Source of the DNA: Thermoplasmata archaeon | GTDB lineage: Archaea; Thermoplasmatota; Thermoplasmata; RBG-16-68-12; JAFNFQ01 | DNA: 64,000 nt | Direction: 5' to 3' | Assembly: GCA_041489255.1 (NCBI GenBank) | Contig: JBGPQV010000006.1 | Location: 1-64,000 of the forward strand | Shown here: in pieces, positions 19,404 to 41,437 of the stretch | Numbering within the stretch: position 1 is the first letter of the stretch | Layout of the letters: each line of letters starts with the position of its first letter | The notes under the pieces: model-generated | What the model was told of the DNA's origin: nothing | Databases searched by the model: none | The model's input: only the letters and a program-made list of their open reading frames with translations | Position numbers and translations under genes: made by a program

Positions 19404-19566
19404 TCGTTCACCAGATGTCTGGCTGAATCCGCGCGTGTATGAAAAAGGTTGCCTTCACGGAGTGTCCAACCATGGCGGTCCTCGGCTGGCATCCCCTGTT
19501 CTCGAGGCACCGCCGGCAATGCAAAAGGCCAAATAAAATCCGAAAACTCAAAACTGATATACTCCA

Positions 19567-20736
19567 TTGCGTATCCCTCTCTCGATCAAGATGGACGACT
19601 ACACGGTTCGGACAATAGATGAGTTCCTGGATATATCAGATGCAGGGGAGACGTCGAAGGTCCAGTACAGGACGGCGCTTGCCTCGATGGAGAGGACTAT
19701 CGGCAAGCCGTTGATCGAGGCCTCGGCCCGGGACGTCATCACCCTCGCTAAGGCGCTGCGCAAGAAGGCCGGGGGACCACAGTACGCCACGATCGCAAGG
19801 ATGTACTACCGGAAGGCCGGACGCCAGGACCTCATGAAGCTGCTCGAGCTGAAACAACGCGTGAAGAAGATCCGGCGGGATGACCTGCTCACGCCGAAAG
19901 ACGTCCAGGCCATGATTGACGTCGCCGAATCCATGAGGGACAAGGTCTTGGTGGCGTTGCTGTGGGAAAGCGGCGTCAGGGTCAGCGAACTCCTGGCGGT
20001 GGATCTGGCCGACGTCAAGGTGAAGACCTCCCCGGAGAACGGCAATCGTAAGGTCTTCGTCATATGGTTCGGTCACGTCAAGAAGACCGGCGAAGAACAC
20101 GAAGGATATGCGATCGAAGCGGCGCCCCTTCTCGAGAAGTGGTTGAGAGCCTATCCGTTCGTCAAGACCGCCGATGCCCCGTTGTTCCCTTCGTGTCGTG
20201 GAAAGCGCATCTCCCGCACGGATAGCCTCGTCATCATCAAGCGCCTGGCAGCGAAGGCCGGCATCACGGATCAAAAGAACCCGAACTCGAAGAGGATCTA
20301 CAACCACTTATTCAGGCACTCCCGGACCACGTGGGCCCTGGCGTCCGGCATGACGGAAGCCCAGGTCAAGGCGCTCTATGGGTGGACTCCCGGAAGCACC
20401 ATGCTCTCGAGGTACTCTCATCTCACTTCGAAAGACGCTTACAAGGGTCTCCTGCGTGCCCAGGGTCTTGAGCCGGAGAAGGTGGACGTGGAGCGCCTTT
20501 CCTTCGACAATGATGATCTGCGCCCTGCCGTGCCGGTGATGCCGCCAAGCACTCAGCGATGGGAATCCATGGAGGCCGTGGACCAAGCCCGCCTGATCGC
20601 TGAGTCGATGCTCAAGCTGCAGGCCTCCATGCCCGTCCCCGCCTGGTCGACGCCTGCGGGTCAAATAGAGAATCTGCAGCACCAGGTCGCCGAACTCCGA
20701 GTGGAGCTCGAGAAGCTGAGAAAGGGGTCATCATGA
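19567..20736 (+). CDS. Tyrosine recombinase/integrase (XerA-like) of an integrated element
   Basis: Catalytic residues ESGVRVSE, HLFRHS, LYGW, RYSHL; C-terminal coiled coil. ATG 19591 is a likely alternative start. Confidence 0.92.
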   Translation: MRIPLSIKMDDYTVRTIDEFLDISDAGETSKVQYRTALASMERTIGKPLIEASARDVITLAKALRKKAGGPQYATIARMYYRKAGRQDLMKLLELKQRVKKIRRDDLLTPKDVQAMIDVAESMRDKVLVALLWESGVRVSELLAVDLADVKVKTSPENGNRKVFVIWFGHVKKTGEEHEGYAIEAAPLLEKWLRAYPFVKTADAPLFPSCRGKRISRTDSLVIIKRLAAKAGITDQKNPNSKRIYNHLFRHSRTTWALASGMTEAQVKALYGWTPGSTMLSRYSHLTSKDAYKGLLRAQGLEPEKVDVERLSFDNDDLRPAVPVMPPSTQRWESMEAVDQARLIAESMLKLQASMPVPAWSTPAGQIENLQHQVAELRVELEKLRKGSS

Positions 20737-23019: not shown

Positions 23020-23163
23020 CTGATGACGTTGACATGGTCAAGACCATTCTGAACGTCTGCACAAACGGAGGAAAAGCCACTTGAGTTTCCAAAACCCGTT
23101 CATGGGGCTTTGTCGGGTTAAGTGATATACCACAGGATGTGCTGGTCTGACGCTCCTTACTCC

Positions 23164-23844: not shown

Positions 23845-23892
23845 AAGAGATTATGGAGAGAATTTCTCATCGCTTCGCTTCCTTTGCCTCTC

Positions 23893-24495: not shown

Positions 24496-24698
24496 AAGCG
24501 CATCGCGCGCTCACTGAATTCATGAACGACAAGCTGCCCCAACAGGTGGCCTACTCAAGAGAAATGGAAAGAGAATGGCATCATCAAGAAGCCTACGAGC
24601 AGAGCGGGAGGAGTATGGCGATGAATGTATAGGAGAATGACGCGAATCTGCGGATTCTGCTCAATAGCGAAGGGCAAGAATCTTAACTTAACAGGGAA

Positions 24699-27473: not shown

Positions 27474-27546
27474 CCTTGGCCTCCCGCCTATCTTCACCCT
27501 CTGAGTACACATCGATGGTGATTCAGGCAGAAGGAAGGCCGTTCGT

Positions 27547-28266: not shown

Positions 28267-28283
28267 GCCCTTTGCCAGCCGCC

Positions 28284-29000
28284 CTAGGAGGGGACCTCGT
28301 GCTGACTCAGACCGATACCCACAGTCACCATCTTGACGCGCTCGCGAACCTTGAGGGTGATGGCGAAGTCGGGATCGAAGAAATCCTTAAGCAGCACCGG
28401 CCGAGGGGCCCCCAGGAGGTATTCCCTTGGAAGGCCTGCAACGGTCGGGGGGAATTCCAGTTGGATGTTTCGGACCTGCTGGACCACGACAGGAATCTCG
28501 CCTACGCCGAGAGACCGAAGCGCATAGACTCGGTGAAATCCGTTGTTCAGCACCACTTTCCCACCCGCCTGAAGGACATTCACGGGTGCACCGCCGTAGC
28601 CCACAAACGAAATGATGGCGGCGGCGGGAAGCCCACCTCCCACGGCATACTGCATATCGTCGGCTGAGAGCTTCTTCACGAAAGCCCCAAGGAACCGAAT
28701 GTCAGAGTTCGGAGAACTGAAGACGTGTGTGTTTGGCGCTACCTAAAAGGCGGTCAACGTAGTCGAGGTTGACCGTGCGCTGCGCCGCGATGAGCTTGTC
28801 GATTTCCACCATCGCGAAGGCAGTTCGGAGATTCGAGAACGTGTTCTGGAACAAGGGGTCTGATGCGACCTGCTTCAGACGGTTCGTGTGCTCCTCCGGG
28901 ACATTCCGTAGTTGGATGGTTTCAGCAGCACCCGACTCAATCTTTGTGAGCTCCGCCACACGCGGTTGAAGGCGCTCCCACTCTTGCATGATCTTGGGAA
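28284..29000 (-). pseudogene. Split, 5'-truncated ParB/Srx-like hypothetical gene
   Basis: Two consecutive ORFs (28702..28989 and 28284..28679); NGFHRVYAL ParB-like motif. Confidence 0.55.
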
Positions 29001-29030
29001 GGCAAGGTATTCCGGCCCGACCGTCCCTCC

Positions 29031-29422
29031 GTGGAGCCTTATCGCATCTCCGGCGAGGGGGAGAGCGAGGACCCTCTCATTCGTGCCCTGCGGGAGGCAT
29101 ACCCTGTCTGGCGTCTGAAGAAGATCATGGAGATAAGCGAGGTGCCAGCCCCGGTCGCGAGATTCCTAATCAGATACTTTGAGGGGATGGGTTGGCAGAG
29201 TCCAGACACTCTGCACTACATCTGCTGCCTACACTTCATCGGCTTCGGCGAAAACGGGACGCGGGCCATCGTAGCCTACGCGTTCAACATCCCCCAGCGG
29301 TATCCCTATCCTTCGACGGTCCCGCCTCTCGGCTCCCAACCGCGGGCTCGGCCCTGACCCCCGGTCTGGCGCGGCGGGCCTTCGGCCGGCTGCGGCGGGA
29401 ACAGAAGGGGCGGCGGCGATGA
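29031..29422 (+). CDS. Hypothetical gene in an inverted piece of the array (possibly frameshifted)
   Basis: ORF 29031..29357; a second frame ends at TGA 29422 inside a hairpin followed by a plus-strand array motif. Confidence 0.45.
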
Positions 29423-29584
29423 TCCGCCCCTTTCGGGTGGTGTCTCGGTTTCTACGGGCCCTGGAGCGGATGAAGACCTGCGCGCGCTGTCGAGTGGAAG
29501 AAACAGAAAAAGTAGGCCAAGACACCAACCCGACTTCAGATATTTCCGTGCGACAGACGTCCTTCACCACCCGAAAAACGGCGG

Positions 29585-30631
29585 CTACCTGTGCCGCCTC
29601 AAGGTCTCGACCACCTCGTTCAGCCGTTCCTCGTCCTGGGTCAGACGAGCGAGCCGCACCGCGAGCCTCACGTCCCTCGAGCCGAGGTTCAGGGTCGCCT
29701 TGGCGACCTTGGCCGCGAACTCTTCCTGGACTCCCTCTCTGAGTATCAGGACCTTGGTCGCGACGTCGGCGAACTCCTGCGGGTTGTAGGCCCTCAGGCG
29801 GATCACTCCCTCCTTCCCGCCGAACCTGCTCAGCAGGGCGTCGCCGATCTCCCTGACGTCGTTCCCGGCCGCGAAAACCCACGTGTTCATCGGCACGGGG
29901 TCGTGCGACCGGTGATATTTCGTCTCCACGACCTCCTGGTTCTCCATCAGATGGAGCAGCGCCGCGTAGTCCTTGGAGTTGTCGATCGTCTCGATCTCGT
30001 CGATCAGCAGGAAGCGCGGGCGATACATGAGCAGAAGGTCAGTCAGGCCGGCCTTTGAGGACGTCCCGCCCAGGACGAAGTGGGCGCTTGGCAGGCGCCC
30101 GAGCTCCATGAGGAACAAGGACTTCGCCGAGGCCGGAGGGCCTTCGAGGATGACGTGGACCGGCCGTTGGGACAGGAGCGCGTACTGGAAGATCTTCTTG
30201 ACGTCGTCGTGGCCGATGACCGGGGTGAAGAGCGTTGCCAGGGTGCCCACGAACTGTGTCTCGAAATCATCCGGGACATCCGGGACATACGCCGCATCAG
30301 ATTGCTGGTCCTCGGTCTCCTTGCTCTTGAAGAAGACCCGTGCCTGGGCGCTCTCGAGGATCTGATTGAACAGCGCGGCGCGAGAGATGAAGCACCCGCA
30401 CTTGATGCAGGTCATCCGGTCGGAGCCCCCCACGGTCTCGGGCTTCTCGCCCTGCAATACCCTGTTCAGGCATTGGAGGAGCTCGTCCATGTCGCTCTGT
30501 TTCGCATGGTCCAGCAAAGTCTCGTGGCAGAGGGGGCACGGCTGGCGCCAGAGCCTCTTCCACTCCTCGCTCTCGACGGTCATGTAGGGATACTTCTTTA
30601 CGAGGTCGTCCGTTGGTCTCATATTGTCCAT
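29585..30631 (-). CDS. AAA+ ATPase (MCM/RuvB-like core) with N-terminal Zn-binding segments
   Basis: GPPASAKS Walker A, LLIDEIE Walker B, FAAGN, LLSRF; CPLC and CIKC. Confidence 0.85.
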   Translation of the reverse strand: MDNMRPTDDLVKKYPYMTVESEEWKRLWRQPCPLCHETLLDHAKQSDMDELLQCLNRVLQGEKPETVGGSDRMTCIKCGCFISRAALFNQILESAQARVFFKSKETEDQQSDAAYVPDVPDDFETQFVGTLATLFTPVIGHDDVKKIFQYALLSQRPVHVILEGPPASAKSLFLMELGRLPSAHFVLGGTSSKAGLTDLLLMYRPRFLLIDEIETIDNSKDYAALLHLMENQEVVETKYHRSHDPVPMNTWVFAAGNDVREIGDALLSRFGGKEGVIRLRAYNPQEFADVATKVLILREGVQEEFAAKVAKATLNLGSRDVRLAVRLARLTQDEERLNEVVETLRRHR

Positions 30632-30651
30632 ATTTCACCACCCGAAAAAAG

Positions 30652-30888
30652 TCAGCCCGCCTGTCCGGACTCTCCCGCCCTTTCCTTCTCGACCTTCTGC
30701 CACACGACGTCCCAGGCCTCCTCGCTCTCCGTCAGCTCCGTCAGGATCAGCTCCCCTCCCTCTCTGGTCAGGATGCCCACCTCCAGGCAGGCCCTGATCA
30801 CCTTGGGCATCGCGTCTTCTATCTGCCTCTCGGTCCAGTTCCAGGAGCGCATGAGGCCTACGAGGTCAGCCACGAATTTTCCGTTCAT
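30652..30888 (-). CDS. Small hypothetical (wHTH-like) protein
   Basis: MNGKFV..., 78 aa, between two motif copies. Confidence 0.6.
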   Translation of the reverse strand: MNGKFVADLVGLMRSWNWTERQIEDAMPKVIRACLEVGILTREGGELILTELTESEEAWDVVWQKVEKERAGESGQAG

Positions 30889-30941
30889 CGCCCTCGCCCC
30901 CGCATCAATACATTCACCACCCGAAAAAGCGACCGAGTGCG

Positions 30942-31565
30942 TCAAGCCTCGGTCTCCAACAGTTGGAACAGCGCCGCCAGGTCCTCGTCGGCAATCTCAG
31001 CTGCTATCTCAGATGCTATCGGCTTCTCCAACTCCGGTGCAGGCGGCTCGTCCGGTTCCGACTCTATCCTCGGCGCGAGCAGGAACGTACCCTTGGTGAC
31101 GTCGTCCCACTCGAACTTGATGGGATAGTCGTTGCCCATGTGCACTGTGAGGGTCGAGTCCTTGACGCTCTTGACTATCTTCTCGAAGTAGTCCAGCGGG
31201 AAGAACGAGGCGCACTTGACCCACGGGCGGGAGACGGCTTCGATCTGTCCTATGTTGTCCAGGAACTCCGCGCGGTACTTGTCCAGGTCGCCCTCCGCCG
31301 TGACCACGAGCTTTGGTCTGTCGTCGGCGTCGAACGTTGCCTCGAGCCTTATGTGGTCCGAGATTTCCCCGGCCGCCTTGCAGGCTTCCAGCAGCGACTT
31401 CGCCGGAATCATGAACGTCACAGGCAGGTTCAGGGCAGGTATCTTCGGGTCGCTCATGCCTGCAGTGTCCACGGCGTTCATGGTCCTCATCTCCGTTGCG
31501 AAGGCGGTCTCGAATGCCTCCTTCGGGTCGTTCCTGTAGAGGATGGAGACCTCGTTCTTCGCGGC
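30942..31565 (-). pseudogene. pcn: N-terminally truncated PCNA sliding-clamp homologue (first ATG at 31490)
   Basis: DTAGMSDPKIPALNLP, ISDHI, EGD, SFFPLDYF, MGNDYPIK and LLAPRIES match the C-terminal half of archaeal PCNA. Confidence 0.8.
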
Positions 31566-31567
31566 CC

Positions 31568-31723
31568 TCAGGCCTCGACCATGCGATACCGCGCCCACTC
31601 TTCCAAGCAAGGCGGGCACGTACAGTCCGATCTGCACTCCTCGTGGCACGAGTTGCACGCTCCGCACGAGGAGCAGAGGTCCTCGGACCCGCACTCTGAA
31701 CACATCTCGATGCTACCGCCCAT
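31568..31723 (-). CDS. 51-aa Cys-rich, metallothionein-like microprotein (below the ORF-track cutoff)
   Basis: MGGSIEMCSECGSEDLCSSCGACNSCHEECRSDCTCPPCLEEWARYRMVEA; the ATG directly follows an array motif. Confidence 0.7.
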   Translation of the reverse strand: MGGSIEMCSECGSEDLCSSCGACNSCHEECRSDCTCPPCLEEWARYRMVEA

Positions 31724-31741
31724 TTTACCACCCGAAAAAGC

Positions 31742-31942
31742 TCAGGCAGTGGCAGCCTGCCGCTCTGCCTGGAGCTCCGCGACCATCTCGCCCTCCATCT
31801 CCTTGAGCTTCTTGTAGGTCTCCGCGAGCTCCCGCTCGAGCCGCGGCATATCCTCGACGGCCTCCCTCGCGTCCTTGACCTCGTTCAGGAGTCGGTCGGC
31901 CTTCCTCTTCACGTCCTCGTAGCAGTAACCGTTCCAGTCCAA
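31742..31942 (-). CDS. Small coiled-coil protein
   Basis: TTG start just after the motif; 66 aa, helical. Confidence 0.7.
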   Translation of the reverse strand: MDWNGYCYEDVKRKADRLLNEVKDAREAVEDMPRLERELAETYKKLKEMEGEMVAELQAERQAATA

Positions 31943-31962
31943 ACGACCACCCGAAAAAGCTG

Positions 31963-32178
31963 TCACGGCTCCAGCATGTCCGCGATGTAGTGGACAAGGT
32001 CCGCGACGTCCCTGAGCGGCACGTAGCCCCGCAGGGCAACGGGCTGTCTCTCGCCCTTCTCCTTCCGCGGGAAGTAGACCTTCGTGTTCCGTGTCTGGCG
32101 TGCTGCTTCCCGGATTCCCCTCGAGGCGTCCCGCAACGCCGTCACGAGCACTTGCCATCCGTCCGGTCTCTTGACCAT
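31963..32178 (-). CDS. Small hypothetical protein
   Basis: ATG after the motif, stop before the next motif. Confidence 0.7.
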   Translation of the reverse strand: MVKRPDGWQVLVTALRDASRGIREAARQTRNTKVYFPRKEKGERQPVALRGYVPLRDVADLVHYIADMLEP

Positions 32179-32203
32179 TTCACTACCACCCGAAAAAGCT
32201 GGC

Positions 32204-32662
32204 CTACAGGCCAGTGGAGACCTGCACGAGCACCGCGTTGTACACCTGCAGCATCGTGTCGACGGACGAGAGCACGTCCTGCATCTTCTGCCGTTCCTCC
32301 TTGAACCGCTCCATGTCCGCGCGGAAGGAAGTGAACTTCTCCGGGCTCATCTGGCCGTTGCGCGACAGCTCGACAAGCTGACCGACGTACTCCTGCAGCT
32401 CGTTGAACGGTCCCAGCTCGACGACGGTGAACGCCTTCGGTCCCATTGTCCGCATCCGGTGCTCTGCCTCTCTGGTGTGCTTGCACTCTCTGGGCGCGGC
32501 CTTGCCGTACTCGTCCTTCTCGCCCTTGTGCTCGTGGTTGAACTGCCACGACCTGCACTCGCAGTACCACCGCGAGCCGTCGTACATCACCTTGTAGAAC
32601 TGACCATGCCTGGACTCGCTCTCGATCTTGAAGACCTTGATGGGTTCGACCTTCAATTCCAC
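32204..32662 (-). CDS. SWIM Zn-finger protein with a helical C-terminus
   Basis: YKVMYDGSRWYCECRSWQF...CKH is the SWIM signature. Confidence 0.85.
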   Translation of the reverse strand: MELKVEPIKVFKIESESRHGQFYKVMYDGSRWYCECRSWQFNHEHKGEKDEYGKAAPRECKHTREAEHRMRTMGPKAFTVVELGPFNELQEYVGQLVELSRNGQMSPEKFTSFRADMERFKEERQKMQDVLSSVDTMLQVYNAVLVQVSTGL

Positions 32663-32700
32663 ACCCGAAAAAGGAGGCTAATCGGCCCCGGAAAGACGCA

Positions 32701-32889
32701 TCAGGTCTCATGCGTGAGGCCTTGGAGGCGCGCGGGGAACAGCCCGAACTTCACGCCGACCCGCTCATTCTCGTCGAGTGAGGCGAACATCTCCCGCAAC
32801 CTCCTGAGTCTTGGTTGGCAAAGAGGACACTCGTCGTATCGTCCATCGTGCCACTCGTTGAACTGCCCTTGATGTCCCACTCTGACCAA
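32701..32889 (-). CDS. Small hypothetical protein (CPLC)
   Basis: TTG after the motif; possibly frameshifted at the 3' end. Confidence 0.6.
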   Translation of the reverse strand: MVRVGHQGQFNEWHDGRYDECPLCQPRLRRLREMFASLDENERVGVKFGLFPARLQGLTHET

Positions 32890-32911
32890 TGCACCACCCG
32901 AAAAAGCGGCG

Positions 32912-33721
32912 CTACTTGCGCCATGGCACGCCACGGACGTGCGGCTGCCTCAGTGCACCCGACGCCTCTGACGCCTTCCCCTCGACCGGCAGGTAGCGGA
33001 TGACCAGTCGCTGGATCGACCCCTTTGCTATCCCGTCCATGATCGACCTGTTGTTGACCACGACCTCCTGGTCGTAGCCCTTGTGGTTGATGTGGACCAC
33101 GAAGCCGCCCTTCTCGGTGATCTCGTGTCTGACGATGTCGAACTCCTCCTCGATCCACGCCTTCAGCTTCATCCACGCGTTGTTCCTCGTCGGCTTGTAG
33201 GGCATGTCGAGGTCCTTCACGATGATGCCCTCGGCGAGTTGCTGCCGCATGAATTCGAGATACAGGTCCACCTTGTCCTGAGGGCAGCCCCAGTAGCCGG
33301 ACACGTGTATGTGGCCGTTGAAGGCGGGCGACCCCTGGAGGTTCGCCAGCGCCTGCCGCCTTACAGTCAGCGGCTCTCCTGAGATGTCCTGTCCGTTGAG
33401 TTCCAGGAGGTCGAACGCCACCAGCGTCGCCGGCAGCGTCATCGACCTCAACCTGATCTCCTTCGGGTTGTCCACGTTCCTTTTCTGCAGCATGTGGAAC
33501 TGGCTGAGCCCGTTCTGCATGATGACTATCTCGCCGACCAGGACGAGCGCAGGGTCCACCTGCACCTCGGGGAACTGGTACGTCACGTCCCTGAGCCTCC
33601 TGTTGAAGAGTCGGCCGTTCTCGACGAGCACCATCATGCCGTCGTACTTCGGTTCCGCAATGGCGTTCTTCGGATGCCTCTTCGCGTCGTATTCTTGGCA
33701 CAGCTGAAATCCGTATTTCAC
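32912..33721 (-). CDS. Minimal ATP-dependent DNA ligase
   Basis: EPKYDG (I), LVGEIV (III), AFDLL (IIIa), EGIIVK (IV), WMKLK (V); GTG start after the motif. Confidence 0.92.
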   Translation of the reverse strand: MKYGFQLCQEYDAKRHPKNAIAEPKYDGMMVLVENGRLFNRRLRDVTYQFPEVQVDPALVLVGEIVIMQNGLSQFHMLQKRNVDNPKEIRLRSMTLPATLVAFDLLELNGQDISGEPLTVRRQALANLQGSPAFNGHIHVSGYWGCPQDKVDLYLEFMRQQLAEGIIVKDLDMPYKPTRNNAWMKLKAWIEEEFDIVRHEITEKGGFVVHINHKGYDQEVVVNNRSIMDGIAKGSIQRLVIRYLPVEGKASEASGALRQPHVRGVPWRK

Positions 33722-33723
33722 TA

Positions 33724-33835
33724 CACCACCCGAAAGGTGGTCGTCCCCCGAGGTCTTCGGAAGATCCGGTGCGCATCGGGGGGGAGTCATACCCCTCTAT
33801 GTAGAGAGCTCGCGGGGACCTCACCACCCGAAAAA
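33724..33835 (-). ncRNA. Candidate structured RNA/leader (or MITE-like insert) between Ku and the ligase
   Basis: ~100 nt between two motif copies; GGTGGT-GAG-GTCCCC-G-CGAG pairs with CTCG-GGGGAC-G-ACCACC, enclosing short inner hairpins. Confidence 0.5.
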
Positions 33836-33849
33836 GAGCGTGGAGAGCC

Positions 33850-34593
33850 TCACTGGGTTTCCACTGTCCCCATTGGGATCAATATCGGCTGTCCTATCCC
33901 CGGCAGCATCGTCGACTCTGCGAGCTTCCTCTGGACCAAGTCGAAGAGCGGGTCGGGCTCGCTCGGGAGGACGACGTCGTCGGACTTGATGGACTCCATC
34001 AGGACCTTGGCCTGCGTCTTCACCTTCGGGTCCGCGGCCGCCATCGGCACGTCGTAGGGCAGCGGCTTGAGGTCCGCGACCTCGTAGGCGAGGAGGCACC
34101 CCTGCTCGTCCGCGACGACGACGTAGTGCCGCACCCTGTCCCTCGGCGAGAAGCGGGCCATGATCGCCATGCCCGTCTCCTTCAGCGTCTCGTGGACCGC
34201 CCTGAACGTCGCCCTCGACGTCTCGTTGCTCTTCTCCGGCGGGAGTAGCCTGTACGTCGCGCTCATGCCGTATTTCGACCCGACCCTCGAGAAGTCGACC
34301 GACTTCTCGACCTTGAACGAGTCGACCTTCGGCCTCTCCGCCTTCGCCTGCTCGAGTTCCTCCGGCGAGATGACGATGTACTCGCCGCTCCCGGGTTTGG
34401 GATAGCCCCGCTGCGGGACCTTCACCCACGAGGAGTACGTTTCTCCGCCCTCCTCGCACTTGACGGTCATCTTCGGTGGCTTTCCGTGACACAGGGTCTT
34501 CAGTTCGAACTGGTCGTCCTGCGTCGCAGAGAACACGCTCACGGGGACCTGGACAAAGCCGAAGTCCAATGCCGTATCCTTCATTCTGGACAC
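33850..34593 (-). CDS. ku: Prokaryotic Ku DNA end-binding protein
   Basis: LDFGFVQVPVSVFSAT, RGY...GEY.VI..EEL, Y.LLP and F...HETLKETG..IMARF follow the Ku core pattern. Confidence 0.85.
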   Translation of the reverse strand: MSRMKDTALDFGFVQVPVSVFSATQDDQFELKTLCHGKPPKMTVKCEEGGETYSSWVKVPQRGYPKPGSGEYIVISPEELEQAKAERPKVDSFKVEKSVDFSRVGSKYGMSATYRLLPPEKSNETSRATFRAVHETLKETGMAIMARFSPRDRVRHYVVVADEQGCLLAYEVADLKPLPYDVPMAAADPKVKTQAKVLMESIKSDDVVLPSEPDPLFDLVQRKLAESTMLPGIGQPILIPMGTVETQ

Positions 34594-34617
34594 TCACCAT
34601 CACCCGAAAAAGGCGCT

Positions 34618-34992
34618 TTAAGCTGGCGGAGCCAGCCACTCGCGCACCCTGGTTATAGCGGATTCGAGGTCGCAGCGCACTGCCTCGTCTCCCTGGCGGT
34701 TCTCGAGGTAGTAGCCGCCGTCGACCATCCGTATGATGACGCCCGGCCTGTTGACCTCCCGCCATATCCACTCGTTCCTGATCTTGGCCACCTGCGACGC
34801 GACGTTCTTCGCCAGCGACTCCACGTCTTGGGGCGGAGCCTGCGTGACCATCGGCGGCGCCTCTTGCGGCGGCGTTGCCTGCGGCGCCCCAAACACCGCG
34901 TAGCACCCCTTGCAGACCTTCATCCCGCCCTCGGTCTCGACCAGGTCCTTTCCGCACTTGGGACACTCGTTGTCCGGTATCTTGGGAATCAT
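34618..34992 (-). CDS. Zn-ribbon protein
   Basis: CPKC..CKGC, Pro-rich linker. Confidence 0.75.
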   Translation of the reverse strand: MIPKIPDNECPKCGKDLVETEGGMKVCKGCYAVFGAPQATPPQEAPPMVTQAPPQDVESLAKNVASQVAKIRNEWIWREVNRPGVIIRMVDGGYYLENRQGDEAVRCDLESAITRVREWLAPPA

Positions 34993-35011
34993 TGCACCAC
35001 CCGAAAAAGGG

Positions 35012-35317
35012 TCACTTCCTGACCCGGCGATCGTCTATTACCTCGCTTACAGGATGGTCACCCATATACTGAACCTCGAGGAGATAGGCGACCTGAGGTA
35101 ACCTTTTCGGGTGGTGAGAATGAAAGAAGTCTACTGCCATTACGCTGGGGAGTGGATTCCGATGGGGCGGAGCCGAACACGATGCCCAAAATGCGGTGCG
35201 GTTGTCCACAACGCTCCTCTCGAGTAGCGAAGTGAGGAATTCGTCCCGTTCTGTCTGAGACATATCCTTCATCGCGTTCCGAATGTCGACCAAGACTGTC
35301 TCTACGGCCCTGTGCAT
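35012..35317 (-). pseudogene. Two small genes scrambled by a 150-bp inversion (35075-35224)
   Basis: Re-inverting between the CTCGAG sites gives MHRAV...LLEEIGDLR* and MKEVYCHY...CPKC...PLEVQYMGD...RVRK*, separated by a correctly oriented motif. Confidence 0.75.
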
Positions 35318-35341
35318 TTCACACCACCCGAAAAAGTGAGG

Positions 35342-36832
35342 CTACACCGCCTCGAATATCTTCCCAGCGACGTCGTCGCCCTGCGTGAGCAGGTCGTACA
35401 GATGGTGGACCACGTCCGAGACCTTCTCGAGGCTCACGGCAGTCCCTCCTATGATGACGGAGTGCAGGCGGAACTGTTTCTTCTCCTTGACAGCCTTGAA
35501 CTCCTTCTCGAACTCCTCGGAGAAGTCGCACTCGCCGTCCGTGACCATTATGACGTCCGCCTTCTTGAACTCCTGCTTGTCGATGTCTCTGACGGCCTCA
35601 GACAGCGGCCGCTCGAAGTCCGTCCCGCTGTTGAAGAACGTCTCGGCCACGTCCATCAGGCGCTTCAGCCTCTCGCCCGGGGACATGTTGGGCTCCACGA
35701 CGACCTTCTCGAGCTCGGACCTCGAGCCGAAGTTGATCCACTCGATCGTCCTGCGGTCCCTCAGAGCAATCTCGGCCAGCGACAGGCCCACGGCTTTCGC
35801 CCACATCTCCCTCGTGATGCCTCCGCTGTCCATCCCCATCGAGCCGCTGTTGTCGACGCAGACTATGATGGGGCCGCGGCCGAACATCTCGCGGCCCTCC
35901 AGCTCGTACTGCAGCAGCTCCGACTTGACGTACTTCGCGTAGAAGTACGGCCGGCGCGCCGGAATCGCGAGGTTCGTCAGCTCCGACGATATGACCCTCG
36001 AGATGTTCCGGCCCATCGTTATGTCGGCTATCTCGGACGGCTCCTTGGTCACCCTGGTGTACCGCTTCTGGAACGCGAGGCGCTTGAAGCGGCCCAGTAT
36101 CTTCGCCAGCTCCCGTATCTTCTGGGAGTTCTGTATGTGGCGCATCAGCTGGAGCCGGTCCTTTCCTGGCAGTTTGGTGACCTGGCCGGGCTCCATGCCC
36201 CAGCCGCCGGCGAAGTCGTTGACCATCTCGATGTCGGAGAGCGCCGTGTTGATGGCGCCCCTGAACGCCGCCTTGACTGCGGGGTTCTGGCACGCCTGGT
36301 TGAACGCCTGTTGCGCCTGCTGAACCGCGTTCTGCAGCGCGGGCATCTTCTTGCTGAGTCGCGCTTGCAGCTTCTTGAGCTGCGGCGTCAGCTGGCTGAG
36401 TCCCGACAGGGCTTTCAACTGAGCGGCAGCCTTCTGCAGGTCGACCTGCCGTTTGGCGTACTCGTTGACCGCGTTCCTGTCCTCCTCGGGGAGGTTTTCC
36501 ATGAGTTCCCGCGAGATGACCTCGGTTGCGATCGCCGATGCTTCCCTCTCTCCGCGCGTGACCGTCCTGAGGCGCTGGTACTCCTGGGTTCCCATCGCCT
36601 TCTCGATCAGGTTCCTGTTGAACTCGTAGATGGGATCCACTTCCTCGGACGGACGCAGCATCGGGGCGTATTTCCACACGCTGTCGAAGACGTCCTGGCC
36701 GAGTTCGTGCGCCGTCGCGAGCGTCTTCCTGTTCAGCGTCTCCTGGAGGCGCTCCGATTCGTCGAACATAGACCTCCATGCCGCGACGTCGAACGGGTCG
36801 CACATCACTGTGTACTTGAATAGTTCGTCCAT
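35342..36832 (-). CDS. vWA-domain protein (ViaA/CoxE-like partner of a MoxR ATPase)
   Basis: VDNSGSM, SGTDF and VTDG MIDAS motifs at the C-terminus. Confidence 0.9.
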   Translation of the reverse strand: MDELFKYTVMCDPFDVAAWRSMFDESERLQETLNRKTLATAHELGQDVFDSVWKYAPMLRPSEEVDPIYEFNRNLIEKAMGTQEYQRLRTVTRGEREASAIATEVISRELMENLPEEDRNAVNEYAKRQVDLQKAAAQLKALSGLSQLTPQLKKLQARLSKKMPALQNAVQQAQQAFNQACQNPAVKAAFRGAINTALSDIEMVNDFAGGWGMEPGQVTKLPGKDRLQLMRHIQNSQKIRELAKILGRFKRLAFQKRYTRVTKEPSEIADITMGRNISRVISSELTNLAIPARRPYFYAKYVKSELLQYELEGREMFGRGPIIVCVDNSGSMGMDSGGITREMWAKAVGLSLAEIALRDRRTIEWINFGSRSELEKVVVEPNMSPGERLKRLMDVAETFFNSGTDFERPLSEAVRDIDKQEFKKADVIMVTDGECDFSEEFEKEFKAVKEKKQFRLHSVIIGGTAVSLEKVSDVVHHLYDLLTQGDDVAGKIFEAV

Positions 36833-36854
36833 TCACCACACCCGAAAAACGGGC

Positions 36855-38042
36855 CTACAGGCCCAGCAGCTCCTTCTTCAAACCCAGCTCGTCCTTGACG
36901 ATGCGTTCCTGCATCCCACGTCCAACGGCTATGTAGTGCTGGACAACGGACATGTCCATCGCCGCCTTCTCGCCCTGGGCGTATATGTCCAGCAGGGTCT
37001 TCAGCGCGTCGTTGATCTTGGACAGGGTGAACGTCGCCTCCGACGCCCTGTTCCTCTTCCCGTCTGGCGTGTCCGTCGGCAGCTTCTCGAGGTTCGCCAT
37101 CGCTATCTGTATCGCGTCGTGCTGCTCCTCCGCCTTCTTGAGCAGCGGGTTCGCGACGCTGAGAACCGCGCCCTGGACGAGCGCCTTGTGCTGCGGGTCT
37201 ATCCACAGCATGTGGCACAGGACGCCAAGGTCATCGACCAGCGCCTCGGTCCTGCCCTGGAGCCACGCCTTCGCCTTGACGACCTCCGTGGCCTCGTTGT
37301 AGCGCCTGTCCGAACCCTGGATGCCCTGACCGGTCAGCATCCTGCGTATCTGCGTCATGCCTTCCAGGACCGCGTCCGGCATGTTCACGAGGGAAGCCTC
37401 GACCTGCGCGGCGTGTATCTCGTCCAGCGTCAGCCGGACGGTCAGCCTCTTCGCGAAGTCGTCGAGCTTCTTCGGTCCCTTGAGCATCGCCATGAAGTGG
37501 CTGTCCTCCGACAGGTATCCTACCTTGTACCTCATCAGGAACCTGTCGTAGAACGCCTGGTCGTTCTCGTCGCTCGAGATCTCGTTCGATGCGGCCATCA
37601 GGACCTCGAGAGGGCACTTCTGCGGCGCCCCGTCGTTGTCGAACATCCGCTCGTTCATGATCTTGAGCATGGCGTCCCGTATGCTCTTGTTTCCCTTGAA
37701 TATCTCGTCCGCGAGGCCGATGTGGCACTCCGGCAGCCTGCCCTTGGTCACGCGCCTCCAGGAATCCTCCTGCAGCGCCTTGACCGACGGCGGTCCGAAC
37801 ACGTGGTCCGGCTCCGTGTACTTCGAGAACTGATGCTCCCAGTACACGGCCTGGTCGATCTGGTTCGCAACGAGGCGCATCATCAGGCTCTTGCTGGTTC
37901 CCGCGGGGCCCACGATGAACACGTGTTTCCTCGCCAGGAGGGCCAGCATCAGCCCGTTGACCTCCTCGGTGCGCTCCAGGATTATGCCGTTCATCTCGGT
38001 CTTGAGCTGGATGAACTTATCCCGTAGAGCGGTCATTTTCAC
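36855..38042 (-). CDS. MoxR/RavA-like AAA+ ATPase
   Basis: GPAGTSKS, LADEIFK, MNER.F, AASNE, AFYDRF, SDRR. Confidence 0.92.
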   Translation of the reverse strand: MKMTALRDKFIQLKTEMNGIILERTEEVNGLMLALLARKHVFIVGPAGTSKSLMMRLVANQIDQAVYWEHQFSKYTEPDHVFGPPSVKALQEDSWRRVTKGRLPECHIGLADEIFKGNKSIRDAMLKIMNERMFDNDGAPQKCPLEVLMAASNEISSDENDQAFYDRFLMRYKVGYLSEDSHFMAMLKGPKKLDDFAKRLTVRLTLDEIHAAQVEASLVNMPDAVLEGMTQIRRMLTGQGIQGSDRRYNEATEVVKAKAWLQGRTEALVDDLGVLCHMLWIDPQHKALVQGAVLSVANPLLKKAEEQHDAIQIAMANLEKLPTDTPDGKRNRASEATFTLSKINDALKTLLDIYAQGEKAAMDMSVVQHYIAVGRGMQERIVKDELGLKKELLGL

Positions 38043-38057
38043 CTACCCGAAAAAGAC

Positions 38058-38222
38058 TCAGTCGGAGAGTTCCGCGTTGACCCCGAACACGTCGACAGGA
38101 TTCCCTCCCGCCACGTGCTCTTGCAACGTGTTTTCGAACAGCTCTGTCGCTTTCTCTATCGCGTCGTTGGAGTCTTCGGCCTCTACCTCATAATCTATTG
38201 CAAAGACGACCTTGAACTTCGT
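38058..38222 (-). CDS. Small DpnD/PcfM-like protein, ACG start
   Basis: (M)KFKVVFAIDYEVEAEDSNDAIEKA...; fills the space between two motif copies; no in-frame ATG/GTG at the expected position. Confidence 0.6.
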   Translation of the reverse strand, partial: TKFKVVFAIDYEVEAEDSNDAIEKATELFENTLQEHVAGGNPVDVFGVNAELSD

Positions 38223-38260
38223 GTCCTCACCACCCGAAAAAGAATCCCCCTCTGGGGGAT

Positions 38261-39229
38261 CTAGTCTTTCTTCTTGACCAGGGGCGCCATCAGCGTCACG
38301 TAGGTGTGCAGGGCGTCCATCTGTATCTGCACCTTGCCCATCGTGACCGACAGCAGCTGCTCGTACTCGGTCTTCTGCTCGGCGAGGTACTTCAGCTCCT
38401 CGACGAACCTGTTGAAGACGCTGGGGACTACCTCCTCCTTCCTGTCGATGATCTCCTTGACCTGGCCGAAGACCTCGTCCAGCCTCTCGAGGGTCGCCTT
38501 CTCGTACCTCTTGAGGAGGGTCGCCCTCTCGCTCTCCCGGTCGATCACCGGCAGGGCCAGCATCTCGCTCCCCGGCAGCTTCTCCACGACGCGGGACACG
38601 GCCTCGATTGGCCCCATGTTCGGTCTCGGGACGAAGAATATCCCGCCGGACTCCCTCAGCGGCATCCTGAAGGACCTGTACAGCGCGTCGCTGATCATCC
38701 CTCTGATGTCGTCCGCTGCGAAGGACTTGCTGTAGACGTCGAACCAGTGCCTTATGTACGGCTCTATGCCGTTGTCACGCGGCTCGAACGCCTGCCTCTG
38801 CTTGAACTCGACCGAGTTCCGGGCCTTGTCGAACCTCGCGGCCGCGACGACCGGCATGGCGTCCTTCGCCGAGTCCAGGACTCTCCTCACGATGACCATC
38901 GTGTCCGAGATCTTCTGCGTCCGCTTGGTCACGGGGTCCTCGACGTATTCGTAGTCGACGTGGTACTCGCGCCCCTTCATGGAGACGTGGTTCTCCGACT
39001 GGACATCCCTTACGGCTCGCTTGAACGCGCTCGACGGCCTTGTGCGCTTCGGCCAGAACTCCTGGGGAACGCCCTCGGCCGCGAGCATCTGCTCCAGCTG
39101 CTCGTGGGGGATGACCTGGTCGGATACGGAGTACCACACGACTGAACCCAGTGGCTCGCTCACGGAGACCTGCGCGACGGCAACCTTCGCCATCTGGTCT
39201 CTTCCGATCGGTATCTCTACCTCTCGCAT
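38261..39229 (-). CDS. DUF6744-like protein that accompanies MoxR AAA/vWA pairs
   Basis: LGSVVWYSV, P....SSAFKRA and LRESGGIFFVP patterns. Confidence 0.75.
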   Translation of the reverse strand: MREVEIPIGRDQMAKVAVAQVSVSEPLGSVVWYSVSDQVIPHEQLEQMLAAEGVPQEFWPKRTRPSSAFKRAVRDVQSENHVSMKGREYHVDYEYVEDPVTKRTQKISDTMVIVRRVLDSAKDAMPVVAAARFDKARNSVEFKQRQAFEPRDNGIEPYIRHWFDVYSKSFAADDIRGMISDALYRSFRMPLRESGGIFFVPRPNMGPIEAVSRVVEKLPGSEMLALPVIDRESERATLLKRYEKATLERLDEVFGQVKEIIDRKEEVVPSVFNRFVEELKYLAEQKTEYEQLLSVTMGKVQIQMDALHTYVTLMAPLVKKKD

Positions 39230-39249
39230 TTACACCACCCGAAAAAGAC

Positions 39250-39492
39250 CTACCGCAGCAGAACGGACAGGTTCTTGTGTTCCTTCAGTCGGTTTCGTGT
39301 CCTCTGAATGAAGGTCTCGGGACATTCTCTCAGGAGGCGTACAAGGATGTCACGCGTTCCCATGTGGTAGGCATTCACTTCCGCTATCGTGACCGCCGTT
39401 ACCCGCGTCTTCTTTGCGAAGTCGTCGAGACCGACCATCTCGACAGCGCTCTTGAGCCATCGTTCGACAAGTTTGTCGAAGTTATCTCTCAC
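39250..39492 (-). CDS. Small hypothetical protein
   Basis: GTG after the motif; 80 aa. Confidence 0.7.
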   Translation of the reverse strand: MRDNFDKLVERWLKSAVEMVGLDDFAKKTRVTAVTIAEVNAYHMGTRDILVRLLRECPETFIQRTRNRLKEHKNLSVLLR

Positions 39493-39514
39493 TTTACCAC
39501 CCGAAAAAGCACGG

Positions 39515-40039
39515 TCATCCGACCGTGGTCGCGACGAGCCACCACTCGTCCGGCTTGGCTTCAATCTCCTTGATGCGGTCCTCGTCCACGCCACAGTGAT
39601 AGTTCTCAGGGTCATACAGGATGCCACAGGACGTCCAGTGTTGGGCGAGTATGTCGCCCGCGTTCCGAAGACAGTAGCCGACCATCCCCAGTTTGCGGCC
39701 CCTCTCGCCGCTTGCGGCCTCTTCAGGGACCAGTTCCTTGGTGCCGAACACCCCCGCCTCGTTCGCGTACCTCCTTGCCCCCTCGGTCCATTCCTGCACC
39801 GCTTCGATGCGGTGCTGCTCGAGCTCTCGGAGTCGAGCGACGAACTTCGCGGGGTCTTCCTTTGCACTCAGGACCTCTGCGTCGGAGTCGTCCTGCCACC
39901 CCAGCGCATCGACGTAGCCCTTGTCCCCCTCCACGAGGTCATGATTCTCGAAGAGGACTCCTATCTCGCCGTCCGCGGCCTTGATCGCCTCGTCACGGGT
40001 CGTCCCTTGGACCAGCATCATCATCGCGTATCCACTCAT
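39515..40039 (-). CDS. Hypothetical virus/plasmid-type protein
   Basis: ATG after the motif; acidic, 174 aa, ending PDEWWLVATTVG. Confidence 0.75.
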   Translation of the reverse strand: MSGYAMMMLVQGTTRDEAIKAADGEIGVLFENHDLVEGDKGYVDALGWQDDSDAEVLSAKEDPAKFVARLRELEQHRIEAVQEWTEGARRYANEAGVFGTKELVPEEAASGERGRKLGMVGYCLRNAGDILAQHWTSCGILYDPENYHCGVDEDRIKEIEAKPDEWWLVATTVG

Positions 40040-40061
40040 TACACCACCCGAAAAGGCCCCG

Positions 40062-40355
40062 TTACGGGGCAACCGACGACTTGCACTCCATACACTTGAA
40101 CCCATTGGGGACCACGCCGACCTCGGGCAGGACGACGTCGAACTCCTCGGCGTCGTGCTCCTCGTCCGGGCCGTCGAATCCGAACCATCGCATCCACGTG
40201 TGGCAATCCCCACAGTGATACAGCGACTGGTTGTGGTCAAGCACCTGGACCGGAGACATCTCCTTTCCGCAGCGCGGGCATTGATGCCCCTGGTCGCGCC
40301 ACCTCTCCCAATCCATGGGAACAAGCACGGGGACTATGTATTTCGATTCCGGCAT
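40062..40355 (-). CDS. Multi-Zn-ribbon protein
   Basis: CPRC, CGDC, CMEC. Confidence 0.7.
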   Translation of the reverse strand: MPESKYIVPVLVPMDWERWRDQGHQCPRCGKEMSPVQVLDHNQSLYHCGDCHTWMRWFGFDGPDEEHDAEEFDVVLPEVGVVPNGFKCMECKSSVAP

Positions 40356-40376
40356 TACACCACCCGAAAAAGGGAC

Positions 40377-40676
40377 TCAGGGAGCACCTTTCGCCTCTTC
40401 GGCCAGATCGACCTTGAGAACCCTGGCGCTGTTCACCTGCATCATCAGGCCGTAGTCATCGCACGTGACGTCGCCTGTTACCTCGACCGGCTGGGCCACG
40501 AGCATGTCCGCGAGCTGGTCCCTGATGACTTCCTGGTTGTCCTTCGACTCCGCCACGCAGGCGTCCAGCGTCTTCTTGAGAAGTCCCTCGGTCAGCTGCC
40601 TGTTGAAGATGGCGACCATCGCTCCGCTGCCGTCATCGACGACTGCTTTGACGCGAAGATCCGGCTCTGCATTCGA
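40377..40676 (-). pseudogene. C-terminal OB-fold fragment of an RPA/SSB homologue
   Basis: PDLRVKAVVDDGSG...FNRQLTE...GDVTCDDYGL is typical of the C-terminus of euryarchaeal RPA; the upstream part is missing. Confidence 0.75.
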
Positions 40677-40800
40677 TCCTATTGAGGCTGGACCTTTCTC
40701 ACGCCAACTCAATCGGCGGAGGTGACCCTCGGCGGATCGACTAGCATTGATTCGAGCTGTAGGGTCTATCTTTAAGTGGTGCGCGGAATTTCCATAGAAC

Positions 40801-41310
40801 GTGGAGAAGTACGTCTTTCGCAAATACGACGCCCGATATAGGACATTCTTTGAGATGGAAAAGGCAAAGCTCGCGGACATCCTCCGGGCGGCGATCATCG
40901 AACATGTCGGAAGCACTGCTGTTCCTGGATTGGGAGGAAAGGGAATCCTCGACATTGCGCTCGCCGTTCCCAAGAAAGGGCTGCAATCCGCCGAGAGAGC
41001 GCTGCGGGAGGCAGGTTACGAATTCCGGGCAAAGGCGAGCACTCCAGAACGATTGTTCTTCAGGAGAGACTATGCAGAGGGACGGAAAGTCAGACGGGTC
41101 CACCTCCACCTTATGCGCCTCGGCAGTCGGGACTTGAAGGAGCAAATCGCCTTCCGCGACTTCCTTATGGACCATCCGGACAGTGCACGCCGGTACGCGG
41201 AGGTCAAAAAGGAGGCGGCGAAAATGTCGAAGGGAGACGGTGATTTTTACAATGCCTACAAGAAACGCTTCATCGAAGATGCAATTGAACTGGCTCTTGC
41301 GGAGCGATGA
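40801..41310 (+). CDS. GrpB-family nucleotidyltransferase-fold protein
   Basis: IEHVGSTAVPGL.GK.ILDI, HLH, FRDFL, Y..VK, Y..YK..FI. Confidence 0.9.
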   Translation: MEKYVFRKYDARYRTFFEMEKAKLADILRAAIIEHVGSTAVPGLGGKGILDIALAVPKKGLQSAERALREAGYEFRAKASTPERLFFRRDYAEGRKVRRVHLHLMRLGSRDLKEQIAFRDFLMDHPDSARRYAEVKKEAAKMSKGDGDFYNAYKKRFIEDAIELALAER

Positions 41311-41437
41311 CTCTACGATTCAGTTCGAAGGAGGGCTGCACCTGTCGATGGTCGCTGTACCGACTGCGTCGTGCGCTCCCATGTCTGAGCAAGCCATCAT
41401 GTCAGTCGTCTTGGCGGCGATATGGGGCGACAGGTTA

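Follow-up and report, generated by a model that had tools for sequence, protein, structure and literature searches.

The window analyzed here is a 64-kb stretch (C6:1-64000) of the 41-contig, 2.74-Mb assembly of a Thermoplasmata archaeon, and it carries an 11-kb gene array within an integrated mobile element of approximately 49 kb (Table 1). The array is a single minus-strand operon of Zn-ribbon, DUF6744, MoxR, VWA, Ku, ATP-dependent DNA ligase, and AAA protein genes. In operon order, a first gene is followed by the genes for a 97-aa Zn-ribbon protein, a 174-aa protein, an 80-aa protein, the DUF6744 protein, a 57-aa open reading frame (ORF), bpMoxR, and the VWA protein. The middle part consists of a unit with an inverted motif, the genes for a 124-aa Zn-ribbon protein and Ku, an ORF-less 98-nt unit, and the ligase gene, and the operon ends with the genes for 62-, 150-, 71-, 66-, 51-, 218-, and 78-aa proteins and an AAA/MCM-like ATPase. 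Nearly all of the operon genes share a composite junction unit, in which a hairpin at the end of the upstream gene is followed by a T-run and TTCGGGTG directly 5' of the next start codon. The repeated unit, which had been described in an initial annotation of the sequence, was confirmed to be real, highly non-random, and conserved.

In the window, TTTCGGGT occurred 23 times, whereas 1.78 copies were expected from shuffled sequences (5 copies in the largest shuffle). The pattern T(3-6)CGGGT(GGTG) was found in 20 co-oriented copies on the minus strand, spanning 29569-40369, and in two inverted copies on the plus strand (at 29431 and 35105), all within 29431-40371. These counts agree with those of the initial annotation, and its statement that the motif occurs nowhere else in the window was nearly right, the exception being a stray plus-strand copy without GGTG at 23323, outside the array. 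Its claim that nearly every junction carries the unit was also borne out: reading of the minus-strand sequence located the unit at 20 of the 21 operon boundaries, and the sole boundary without it is the junction of the overlapping 51-aa and 218-aa genes (~31598-31568). The consensus of the window copies is C-TTTTT-CGGGTGGTG; runs of five T are the most frequent (17 of 22 copies in the window and 19 of 32 in relatives), and the G at +5 is conserved. All 18 whole-genome copies of the 11-mer TTTCGGGTGGT lie inside the array. In addition, CGGGT (16 versus 23) and TCGGG (35 versus 34) showed no enrichment upstream of 1432 crude host starts obtained with an ORF filter. Both results support the idea of a modular punctuation unit specific to the element. 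No other 9- or 11-mer was repeated four or more times in the left part of the element (19537-29400), and the right part (40400-68617) contained only unrelated words with at most 7 (9-mers) or 4 (11-mers) copies.

Table 1. Positions of the junction units, array genes, and element ends
Feature	Position	Strand	Details
Whole junction-motif array, ~20 co-oriented genes, one operon	29431..40371	-	GC 0.60-0.62
Inverted motif copy facing the array end	29431..29442	+	Nearest ATG +43
Terminal junction unit	29565..29578	-	3' of hairpin GGCGGC-ACAGGTA-GCCGCC; no gene after
Junction unit, T6	30636..30649	-	ATG +14, 348-aa AAA/MCM-like ATPase
Junction unit	30915..30928	-	3' of hairpin GACCGAG..CTCGGTC; ATG +11 is a 2-codon upstream ORF; 78-aa gene from 30888
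218-aa gene	31598-30942	-	Overlaps 51-aa ORF; no unit of its own
Junction unit	31726..31739	-	ATG +12, 51-aa Cys-rich ORF
Junction unit	31945..31958	-	TTG +12, 66 aa
Junction unit	32184..32197	-	3' of hairpin CTGGCC-TGTA-GGCCAG; ATG +15, 71 aa
Junction unit, variant CGGGTGTGG	32659..32672	-	TTG +12, 150 aa
Junction unit	32892..32905	-	3' of hairpin GGCGC-AAGTA-GCGCC; TTG +12, 62 aa
ATP-dependent DNA ligase gene	32912..33721	-	DNA_ligase_A_M E 2.4e-20
Junction unit, T3 only	33724..33737	-	GTG +12, ATP-dependent DNA ligase; direct repeat of the 33822-33835 copy
Junction unit	33822..33835	-	Followed by the ORF-less 98-nt unit missing from L221
Ku-like protein gene	33850..34593	-	Pfam Ku E 1.8e-13
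Junction unit, variant CGGGTGATGGTG	34598..34611	-	GTG +14, Ku
Junction unit, right crossover	34995..35008	-	Homology again from 35009; ATG +12, 124-aa Zn-ribbon
Inverted motif copy	35105..35116	+	ATG +15 starts 35-codon Cys-rich ORF (35122-35229)
Junction unit, left crossover of cassette replacement versus L225	35322..35335	-	Homology end 35322
VWA-domain protein gene	35342..36832	-	VWA_2 E 4.7e-10; phrog_24053 E 9.8e-69
Junction unit, variant CGGGTGTGGTG	36836..36849	-	3' of hairpin GGGCC-TGTA-GGCCC; ATG +13, VWA
bpMoxR AAA+ ATPase gene	36855..38036	-	Pfam E 1.2e-40
Junction unit, variant CGGGTAGGTG	38041..38054	-	ATG +14, MoxR
Junction unit	38228..38241	-	3' of 8-bp hairpin; next 54-57-aa ORF without ATG/GTG/TTG, ACG +15
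DUF6744 protein gene	38261..39229	-	Pfam E 5.9e-39
Junction unit	39233..39246	-	ATG +13, DUF6744 gene
Junction unit	39495..39508	-	3' of hairpin CACGGTC-GGAT-GACCGTG; GTG +12, 80 aa
Junction unit	40042..40055	-	3' of hairpin GCCCCG-TAA-CGGGGC; ATG +12, 174 aa
Junction unit TTTTTCGGGTGGTG	40358..40371	-	ATG +12, 97-aa Zn-ribbon gene
First gene of the operon	40377..40707	-	Start approximate; no unit upstream
Candidate TATA-like box TTAAAGATA	~40761-40769	-	5' of the operon's first gene
Tyrosine integrase gene	19567..20736	+	Left end of the ~49-kb integrated element
13-bp direct repeat AAAGGCCAAATAA, left copy	19524..19536	+	
13-bp direct repeat AAAGGCCAAATAA, right copy	C6 68605-68617		Beyond the window

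The hairpins showed more stable folding than expected. All nine hairpins listed in the initial annotation were present, and the 36 nt 5' of the T-run folded with a mean of -12.4 kcal/mol, compared with -9.7 kcal/mol for dinucleotide shuffles (z was negative at 19 of 20 junctions, with a mean of -1.15) and -7.9 kcal/mol for 365 coding windows of the array (Mann-Whitney p = 2e-7). Several of the stems are weak, as the annotation had already pointed out. A scan for bacterial-type terminator patterns gave 24 sites, compared with 8.1 +/- 2.4 in shuffles, and 13 of the entries fell on 11 distinct junctions. The resemblance of the hairpin and T-run to an intrinsic terminator thus holds both in the folds, most of which place the 3' arm 0-2 nt before the T-run, and in the pattern scan (11 of 20 junctions). 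The hairpins differ from gene to gene and between orthologous junctions of relatives. Because the sequence changes at every gene and across orthologous junctions, the hairpin appears to be selected as a structure. According to a study on archaeal termination, U4-U7 tracts serve as termination sites for RNA polymerase and aCPSF1 with no hairpin required; the efficiency at one U4 tract is intermediate, and aCPSF1 binds U tracts and cuts downstream (PMC8716108). From these data, attenuation or cleavage would be expected at each junction, since every gene is followed by a single U5 tract. Inspection of the junctions, which are 25-45 nt long and GC-rich except for the T5, revealed no AT-rich box approximately 26 nt 5' of a plausible transcription start. 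Because no archaeal TATA box or B recognition element (BRE) is visible in the unit, expression of the genes appears to rely on read-through transcription that starts at a single upstream promoter. The T-run itself was ruled out as a TATA box, as it lies only ~15 nt before the start codon, and a scan for bacterial sigma-70 promoters in this archaeal host stayed at the chance level (3 versus 2.2).

The unit is positioned relative to start codons. In 16 of the 20 co-oriented copies, a canonical start codon of an ORF of at least 51 codons lies 12-15 nt past the C of CGGG. Among the exceptions, the copy at 33833 precedes the 98-nt unit without an ORF, that at 29576 stands at the array end, that at 30926 has an ATG at +11 opening only two codons (the ATG of the gene is at +36), and that at 38239 has no canonical start but an ACG at +15. 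When 51 junction copies from seven sources (the window and six related ones) were pooled, ATG was found 23 times at offsets 10-16, compared with 7.2 expected (p = 1.4e-6). Both inverted copies face ORF starts on the plus strand, and the first gene of the operon, located behind a candidate promoter, lacks the unit; these two facts tie the unit to operon-internal gene starts. In archaeal translation, operon-internal genes are the class that depends on Shine-Dalgarno (SD) sites. The 3' tail of the host 16S rRNA, which is archaeal, is GGATCACCTCCT, and pairing of CGGGUGGUGA, GGGTGGTGA, or GGGTGGTG with this tail was calculated at -11.0 kcal/mol, compared with -18.4 kcal/mol for a perfect SD and -5.3 kcal/mol for GGGUG alone. 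The pairing has one internal mismatch or two registers, the latter being possible by hand alignment. The motif thus combines complementarity to the 16S tail with a suitable distance from the start codon. The initial annotation had noted that SD pairing does not explain the fixed TTTCGG; the pairing of GGGTGGTGA indeed accounts for only part of the unit and not for the TTC. The host genes also use SD sites, because AGGTG (89 versus 18), GGTGA (89 versus 23), and GGAGG (163 versus 52) were enriched 5' of the host starts. Two other pairing partners were rejected: one 8-mer complement elsewhere in 16S rRNA, CCACCCGA at position 1349, was judged to be due to chance, and pairing with the unprocessed 16S trailer added only 2 kcal/mol.

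Some of the starts are unusual in their own right. The 54-57-aa ORF (38058-38231, minus strand) has no ATG, GTG, or TTG and shows an ACG at +15. At exactly +12, the ligase orthologues have GTG (the window and L221), ACG (L133 and L222), or ATA (L223 and L224), and the N-terminal KYGFQ/HGFQ is kept despite the change at the start position. In total, four genes or orthologue sets lack a canonical start and have ACG or ATA at the canonical offset. These sequences suggest near-cognate initiation at the ligase and 54-57-aa ORF starts. As a general rule, ACG starts were rejected, since they showed no positional enrichment (9 versus 9.5 expected) and concern single genes only. Behind the unit at 30926, an overlapping chain of mini-ORFs (30888-30914, minus strand) runs from ATG-TAT-TGA through ATG...TGA to the ATG of the 78-aa protein gene in an ATGA overlap. 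This arrangement could reflect termination-reinitiation or chance.

Scans of related genomes, which the initial annotation had proposed along with a scan of the full genome, revealed the same design outside the window. Among 79 genomes of the order, the 11-mer formed clusters only in the present genome G000 (18 copies), G066 (7 copies), and G036 (3 copies, on one 5.3-kb contig). Among 401 genomes of the class, TTTTCGGGTGR exceeded the background only in G000 (19 copies) and G066 (12 copies), the others having at most 6. Two contigs of G066 (C61 and C180) form a syntenic relative that displays the same arrangement of stop-hairpin, T3-5, CGGGTG, and start codon with different hairpins. The TTCGGGTG core is kept in the syntenic relatives although the encoded proteins are only 36-61% identical (DUF6744, 41%; MoxR, 53%; VWA, 52-58%; Ku, 61%; ligase, 61%; 124-aa Zn-ribbon, 39%; 150-aa, 51%; 78-aa, 36%; AAA, 36%), and G000 and G066 have their core genes in the same order. 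Five metagenome contigs obtained by Ku alignment (60-96% protein identity) exhibited the same junction design. The core common to the relatives is T(3-5)CGGGTG, and the second GGTG is found only in the lineage of the window. One to four copies of the unit were also observed beside other genes, including one for a relative of the 218-aa protein (29% identity), on the contigs L132 (G036:C17, 3270-4210) and L134 (G066:C196, 183). Because these contigs carry the unit beside other genes, more members of the element family probably exist in the order. Scans with the DUF6744 protein alone found no relatives in viral or genome contigs. In IMG/VR, the MoxR alignment yielded 80 loci with 28-41% identity, none of them with a junction array, and the Ku alignment found no relative. 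An exact 15-mer scan of IMG/VR was uninformative: each of the 81 loci listed, of at least 120 stretches, had a single match.

Comparison with close relatives located the breakpoints of gene exchange. In L221 (93% nucleotide identity), the 98-nt unit is missing from the Ku-ligase interval, and the one 12-nt motif present there aligns to both of the window copies. In L225 (91-97%), 481 unrelated nt with two units take the place of 312 nt of the window; the homology ends at 35322, the final base of a motif copy, and resumes at 35009, the initial T of the following copy. The difference between L223 and L224 (95% identical to each other) is a 195-nt cassette that encodes a 62-aa ORF and has an 11-nt repeat of the motif on its flanks. 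All three indel or replacement polymorphisms found between close relatives thus end inside the motif, so the exchanged unit is "spacer + start + ORF + stop-hairpin." The small units vary between elements, whereas the core genes keep their order. The initial annotation had proposed a comparison of gene order and, as one option, recombination sites of gene cassettes analogous to those of integrons. The cassette gains, losses, and replacement indeed break inside the motif; the conserved core order speaks against free shuffling and the integron analogy. Contigs of four further sediment metagenome runs, compared with 28500-41500, were near-identical to the window and showed no motif-to-motif joints of the kind that mini-circles would leave, although such contigs drop rare variants; the comparison therefore speaks neither for nor against ongoing exchange. 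The only two joints listed for them (31083-31184 and 33124-33517) had sides of 20-22 nt and were off the motif.

Several observations concern individual cassettes. The 87 nt between the motif copies of the 98-nt unit (33736-33822, minus strand) were rejected as a structured RNA (z = -0.75) and had no homologue in the genome or the fetched loci; this ORF-less spacer may be the remnant of a lost cassette. No homology was detected between the 57-aa ORF of the window and the 62-aa cassette of L223. An all-versus-all tblastx comparison of the cassette units was too noisy in the GC-rich DNA to follow transposition to new junctions, and only the core order is reliable. In the cassette 35010-35321, a 35-codon Cys-rich ORF on the plus strand (35122-35229) overlaps a 101-aa ORF on the minus strand (35317-35012), either of which may be the real one, and the whole cassette is swapped for two other units in L225.

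We favor, with about an even chance of being correct, the explanation of a composite expression junction: the unit would serve the expression of genes inside a single long operon and double as a recombination hotspot. In this array, each gene ends in its own GC-rich hairpin, formed partly by its last codons and stop codon, with U5 directly after. The hairpin and U5 would act as an attenuating terminator or as a signal that forms or protects the 3' end, as the behavior of archaeal RNA polymerase and aCPSF1 at U4-U7 tracts suggests. The next 8-9 bases, (C)GGGTGGTG, would serve as an SD-type ribosome-binding site that can pair with the 16S tail in two registers, and translation would re-initiate at the start codon 12-15 nt past the C. 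Because the same 11-14-nt word is present at every junction, we propose that it provides the crossover point for short-homology recombination, which would insert, delete, and exchange small cassettes of the form "start + ORF + stop-hairpin" among related elements without altering the core order. Such recombination is a simpler reading than a dedicated recombinase, and we speculate that the element's own Ku and ligase may help in it. The invariance of the TTC may result from a host or element factor or from homogenization by recombination. A stronger version, in which a factor encoded by the element or the host reads UUCGGGUG and couples read-through of the ~18 hairpin/U5 terminators to translation initiation, perhaps even at the ACG or ATA found at +12 to +15 in some genes, and in which the sites also serve active capture and excision of single-gene cassettes, seems improbable to us. 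If true, it would represent a cis-signal of an element-specific expression and cassette system so far undescribed in archaea.

Several points weigh against our explanation. On the translation side, the invariant TTC 5' of GGG is left unexplained by rRNA pairing, and GGTG, which ends 2-5 nt ahead of the start codon, has rather short spacing for an SD. It is also unusual for every gene to carry the same SD, a pattern that would fit a sequence-specific factor equally well. Furthermore, the host control set comes from the crude ORF filter and not from a gene caller. On the transcription side, considerable read-through would be required to pass ~18 U5 tracts within the operon. Runs of T5 or longer are rare in the host (0.17 per kb per strand, and 64 of 1461 crude genes with such a run in the first 100 nt past the stop codon), whereas the sense strand of the array has ~18 in 11 kb. 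This difference counts in favor of the terminator geometry, but it also means that the U tract does not copy the usual gene ends of the host, where T5 is rare. The hairpins fold equally on both strands (-9.9 versus -10.0 kcal/mol at 49 junctions; 25 G-U among 337 pairs), so that their stability does not tell an RNA-level role from a DNA-level one. The sequencing runs with the locus comprised 20 listed DNA metagenome runs and no RNA run; at least five sediment runs contain the DNA of the element. As for recombination, 11-14 nt is short for ordinary homologous recombination, and with a unit at every junction any whole-gene indel necessarily has a unit on either side, so that what argues for crossover within the motif is only the nucleotide exactness of the ends.

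In a rival explanation, a sequence-specific protein or RNA encoded by the element or host binds the motif, and the SD resemblance is secondary. Such a factor might be a stoperator-type repressor that silences elongation in the integrated state, or an antiterminator or translation activator, as has been proposed for the start-associated sequences (SAS) of Cluster K mycobacteriophages. TTCGGGTG is invariant across elements with 36-61% identical proteins, including the bases without a 16S partner, and the motif is missing from the rest of the host genome. Like the L5 stoperators (PMC9283540), the site is asymmetric, sits in short gaps between genes, and points in the direction of transcription. 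Units are also present where no gene comes after (29576 and 33833), the hairpins have no strand preference, and conserved small proteins of the operon (e.g., the 124-aa Zn-ribbon, 150-aa, and 78-aa proteins) are candidates for the factor. However, the start spacing of +12 to +15 and the ATG enrichment point to translation rather than to a DNA roadblock. The candidate promoter region of the first gene contains no copy, whereas repressors of the L5 type also bind an operator, and no repressor gene of the helix-turn-helix (HTH) type was identified in the array. Moreover, hosts of different families show no covariation of the motif, which an immunity system would be expected to display. We therefore regard a specific factor as possible but unlikely.

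A cut at or after the U tract, by aCPSF1 or another endonuclease, would convert the operon transcript into monocistronic mRNAs with a 3' hairpin and a short SD leader. The different hairpin at each gene end, directly 5' of the U tract, and the stop-to-start gaps too small for promoters are compatible with such RNA processing, and aCPSF1 is described as binding U tracts and cleaving downstream (PMC8716108). The idea overlaps largely with the composite expression junction, differing only in cleavage versus termination, and it leaves the conserved CGGG unexplained; we consider it quite unlikely as a separate explanation. Dedicated recombination sites similar in function to attC, at which a recombinase captures and excises cassettes, appear least probable, indeed very unlikely. 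In integrons, promoterless ORFs each carry a variable hairpin beside the conserved core of attC, and the cassette boundaries lie at the core. The array shares the boundaries at a conserved core: all three polymorphisms end inside the motif, the exchanged piece is an ORF with its own hairpin beside the core, the units are almost all co-oriented, and an ORF-less 98-nt unit lies between two cores. In contrast to the attC R''/R' arrangement, however, the core lies outside, 3' of the hairpin, with no inverted complement 5' of it. The inverted copies precede genes on the opposite strand, which ties the motif to gene starts, and the core gene order is stable between G000 and G066. No integrase gene, attI, or common promoter of the integron type adjoins the array. 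The sole integrase found, the tyrosine recombinase at 19567-20736, lies 8.7 kb off at the end of the 49-kb element; it goes with the unrelated 13-bp repeat of the whole element, and the suggestion in the initial annotation that it may serve the motif is not supported.

Known systems offer partial parallels to the composite expression junction. The closest analogues appear to be the PeSL (promoter early stem-loop) cassettes of T4-type phages and the SAS of Cluster K mycobacteriophages, and the unit belongs to neither family. As described by Arbiol et al. (2010; PMC2839356), PeSLs are repeated composite units in which the upstream stop codon is followed by a stem-loop terminator or attenuator and by the SD and start of the next gene. 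They are concentrated among small genes of unknown function, and the units, presumed to recombine among themselves, form the limits of insertions, deletions, and replacements between close genomes (PMC2839356). The array likewise has a repeated intergenic unit with a predicted terminating or attenuating stem-loop, supported by the hairpin excess and the pattern at 11 of 20 junctions, and indels and replacements bounded by units. PeSLs differ in containing a strong sigma-70 promoter, in spanning ~100 bp, and in belonging to lytic phages (PMC2839356), whereas the present unit spans 30-45 nt, has a conserved word of only 11-14 nt and no visible archaeal TATA/BRE, and resides in an integrated element of an archaeal host. 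In addition, no mini-circles were seen here in the contigs of the four metagenome runs, in which rare variants are dropped.

The SAS, as described (Pope et al. 2011, PMC3203893; PMC12699233), are short asymmetric repeats that combine an SD core with conserved bases unable to pair with 16S rRNA and lie a few nucleotides before the starts of 11-19 non-structural genes, and their function is unproven. They have one orientation, are not in the host genome, and are kept across diverged relatives before unrelated genes (PMC3203893; PMC12699233). The junction motif agrees in being an asymmetric repeat with an SD core and conserved non-pairing bases a few nucleotides before starts, missing from the rest of the host genome and restricted to non-structural genes of the element. 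In contrast, the SAS sequence is unrelated to the motif and is not fused to a T-run. The motif differs from the Cluster K consensus (PMC3203893), and its host is an archaeon, which gives no actinobacteriophage context. The inverted repeats of the extended SAS (ESAS) are conserved in sequence and thought to bind protein, whereas each hairpin here is unique, and recombination breakpoints are not reported for SAS in the text compared (PMC3203893; PMC12699233). Stoperators of Cluster A phages such as L5 are described as more than 20 asymmetric 13-mers in short intergenic spaces with an orientation that follows transcription (PMC9283540), and the sites of the array share these properties. The stoperators are DNA bound by repressor, are also found as promoter operators, and have no fixed distance from starts (PMC9283540), whereas the start spacing is fixed here, no motif copy lies at the candidate promoter or anywhere between 40372 and 41500, and family scans of the element proteins identified no immunity repressor. 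Among archaeal viruses, the HF2 halovirus has conserved intergenic repeats with a role in expression and a position kept in relatives; these are 29 and 58 bp long, contain AT-rich promoter motifs, and have been proven to act as promoters (Russ et al. 2021, PMC8707807). The unit differs in having no AT-rich box other than T5 and in lying 12-15 nt before the start. The literature searched contained no such system for archaeal mobile elements beyond these promoter-bearing repeats. The statement in the initial annotation that this is not a described system therefore holds for archaea in that literature, although the phage PeSL and SAS are close functional analogues.

Repeated composite junctions with a dual role, in regulating genes and in driving modular gene exchange, have been described in a small number of phage groups (PeSL and SAS). 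The array provides ~20 natural variants of one design (hairpin, U5, and SD-like word) on one template. Three processes that are little understood in archaea could be measured on it: how efficiently single U tracts terminate and what hairpins contribute to this, how translation is initiated at operon-internal genes, and how short-homology recombination makes archaeal elements mosaic. Related elements and their accessory cassettes could also be searched for in metagenomes with the uniform 11-nt word as a simple key.

The element itself was delimited by genome comparison. C6 19537-68604 is an insertion of ~49.1 kb that is missing from the same-genus genome G006, and the 13-bp att-type repeat at its ends, AAAGGCCAAATAA, is unrelated in sequence to the junction motif. 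GC content at third codon positions is 0.80-0.91 in most large array genes, and the total GC of the flanks is 0.51-0.57. The rest of the element carries restriction-enzyme-like, HTH, surface-protein, AAA_21, and SIR2-like genes; the AAA_21 (AbiEii-like) and SIR2-like genes, in the right part, resemble defense genes. Because no capsid gene was recognized among the ORFs scanned in the element, we call it an integrated mobile element and not a provirus. Rfam and tRNA scans of the window gave no match. The adjacent Ku-like (33850-34593) and ligase (32912-33721) genes, whose products keep 61% identity in relatives, appear from their sequences to be an element-borne end-joining pair beside the MoxR, VWA, and DUF6744 genes. 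At the other end of the array, the terminal unit (29565-29578, minus strand) and the inverted copy 120 nt downstream (29431-29442, plus strand) can pair over 12 bp; such pairing, in a read-through transcript or single-stranded DNA, could signal where the module ends. A plus-strand ORF (40801-41310) runs antisense to the long minus-strand frame that precedes the operon's first gene, and a perfect SD-like sequence, GGAGGTGACC, is located on the plus strand ~90 nt 5' of this ORF.

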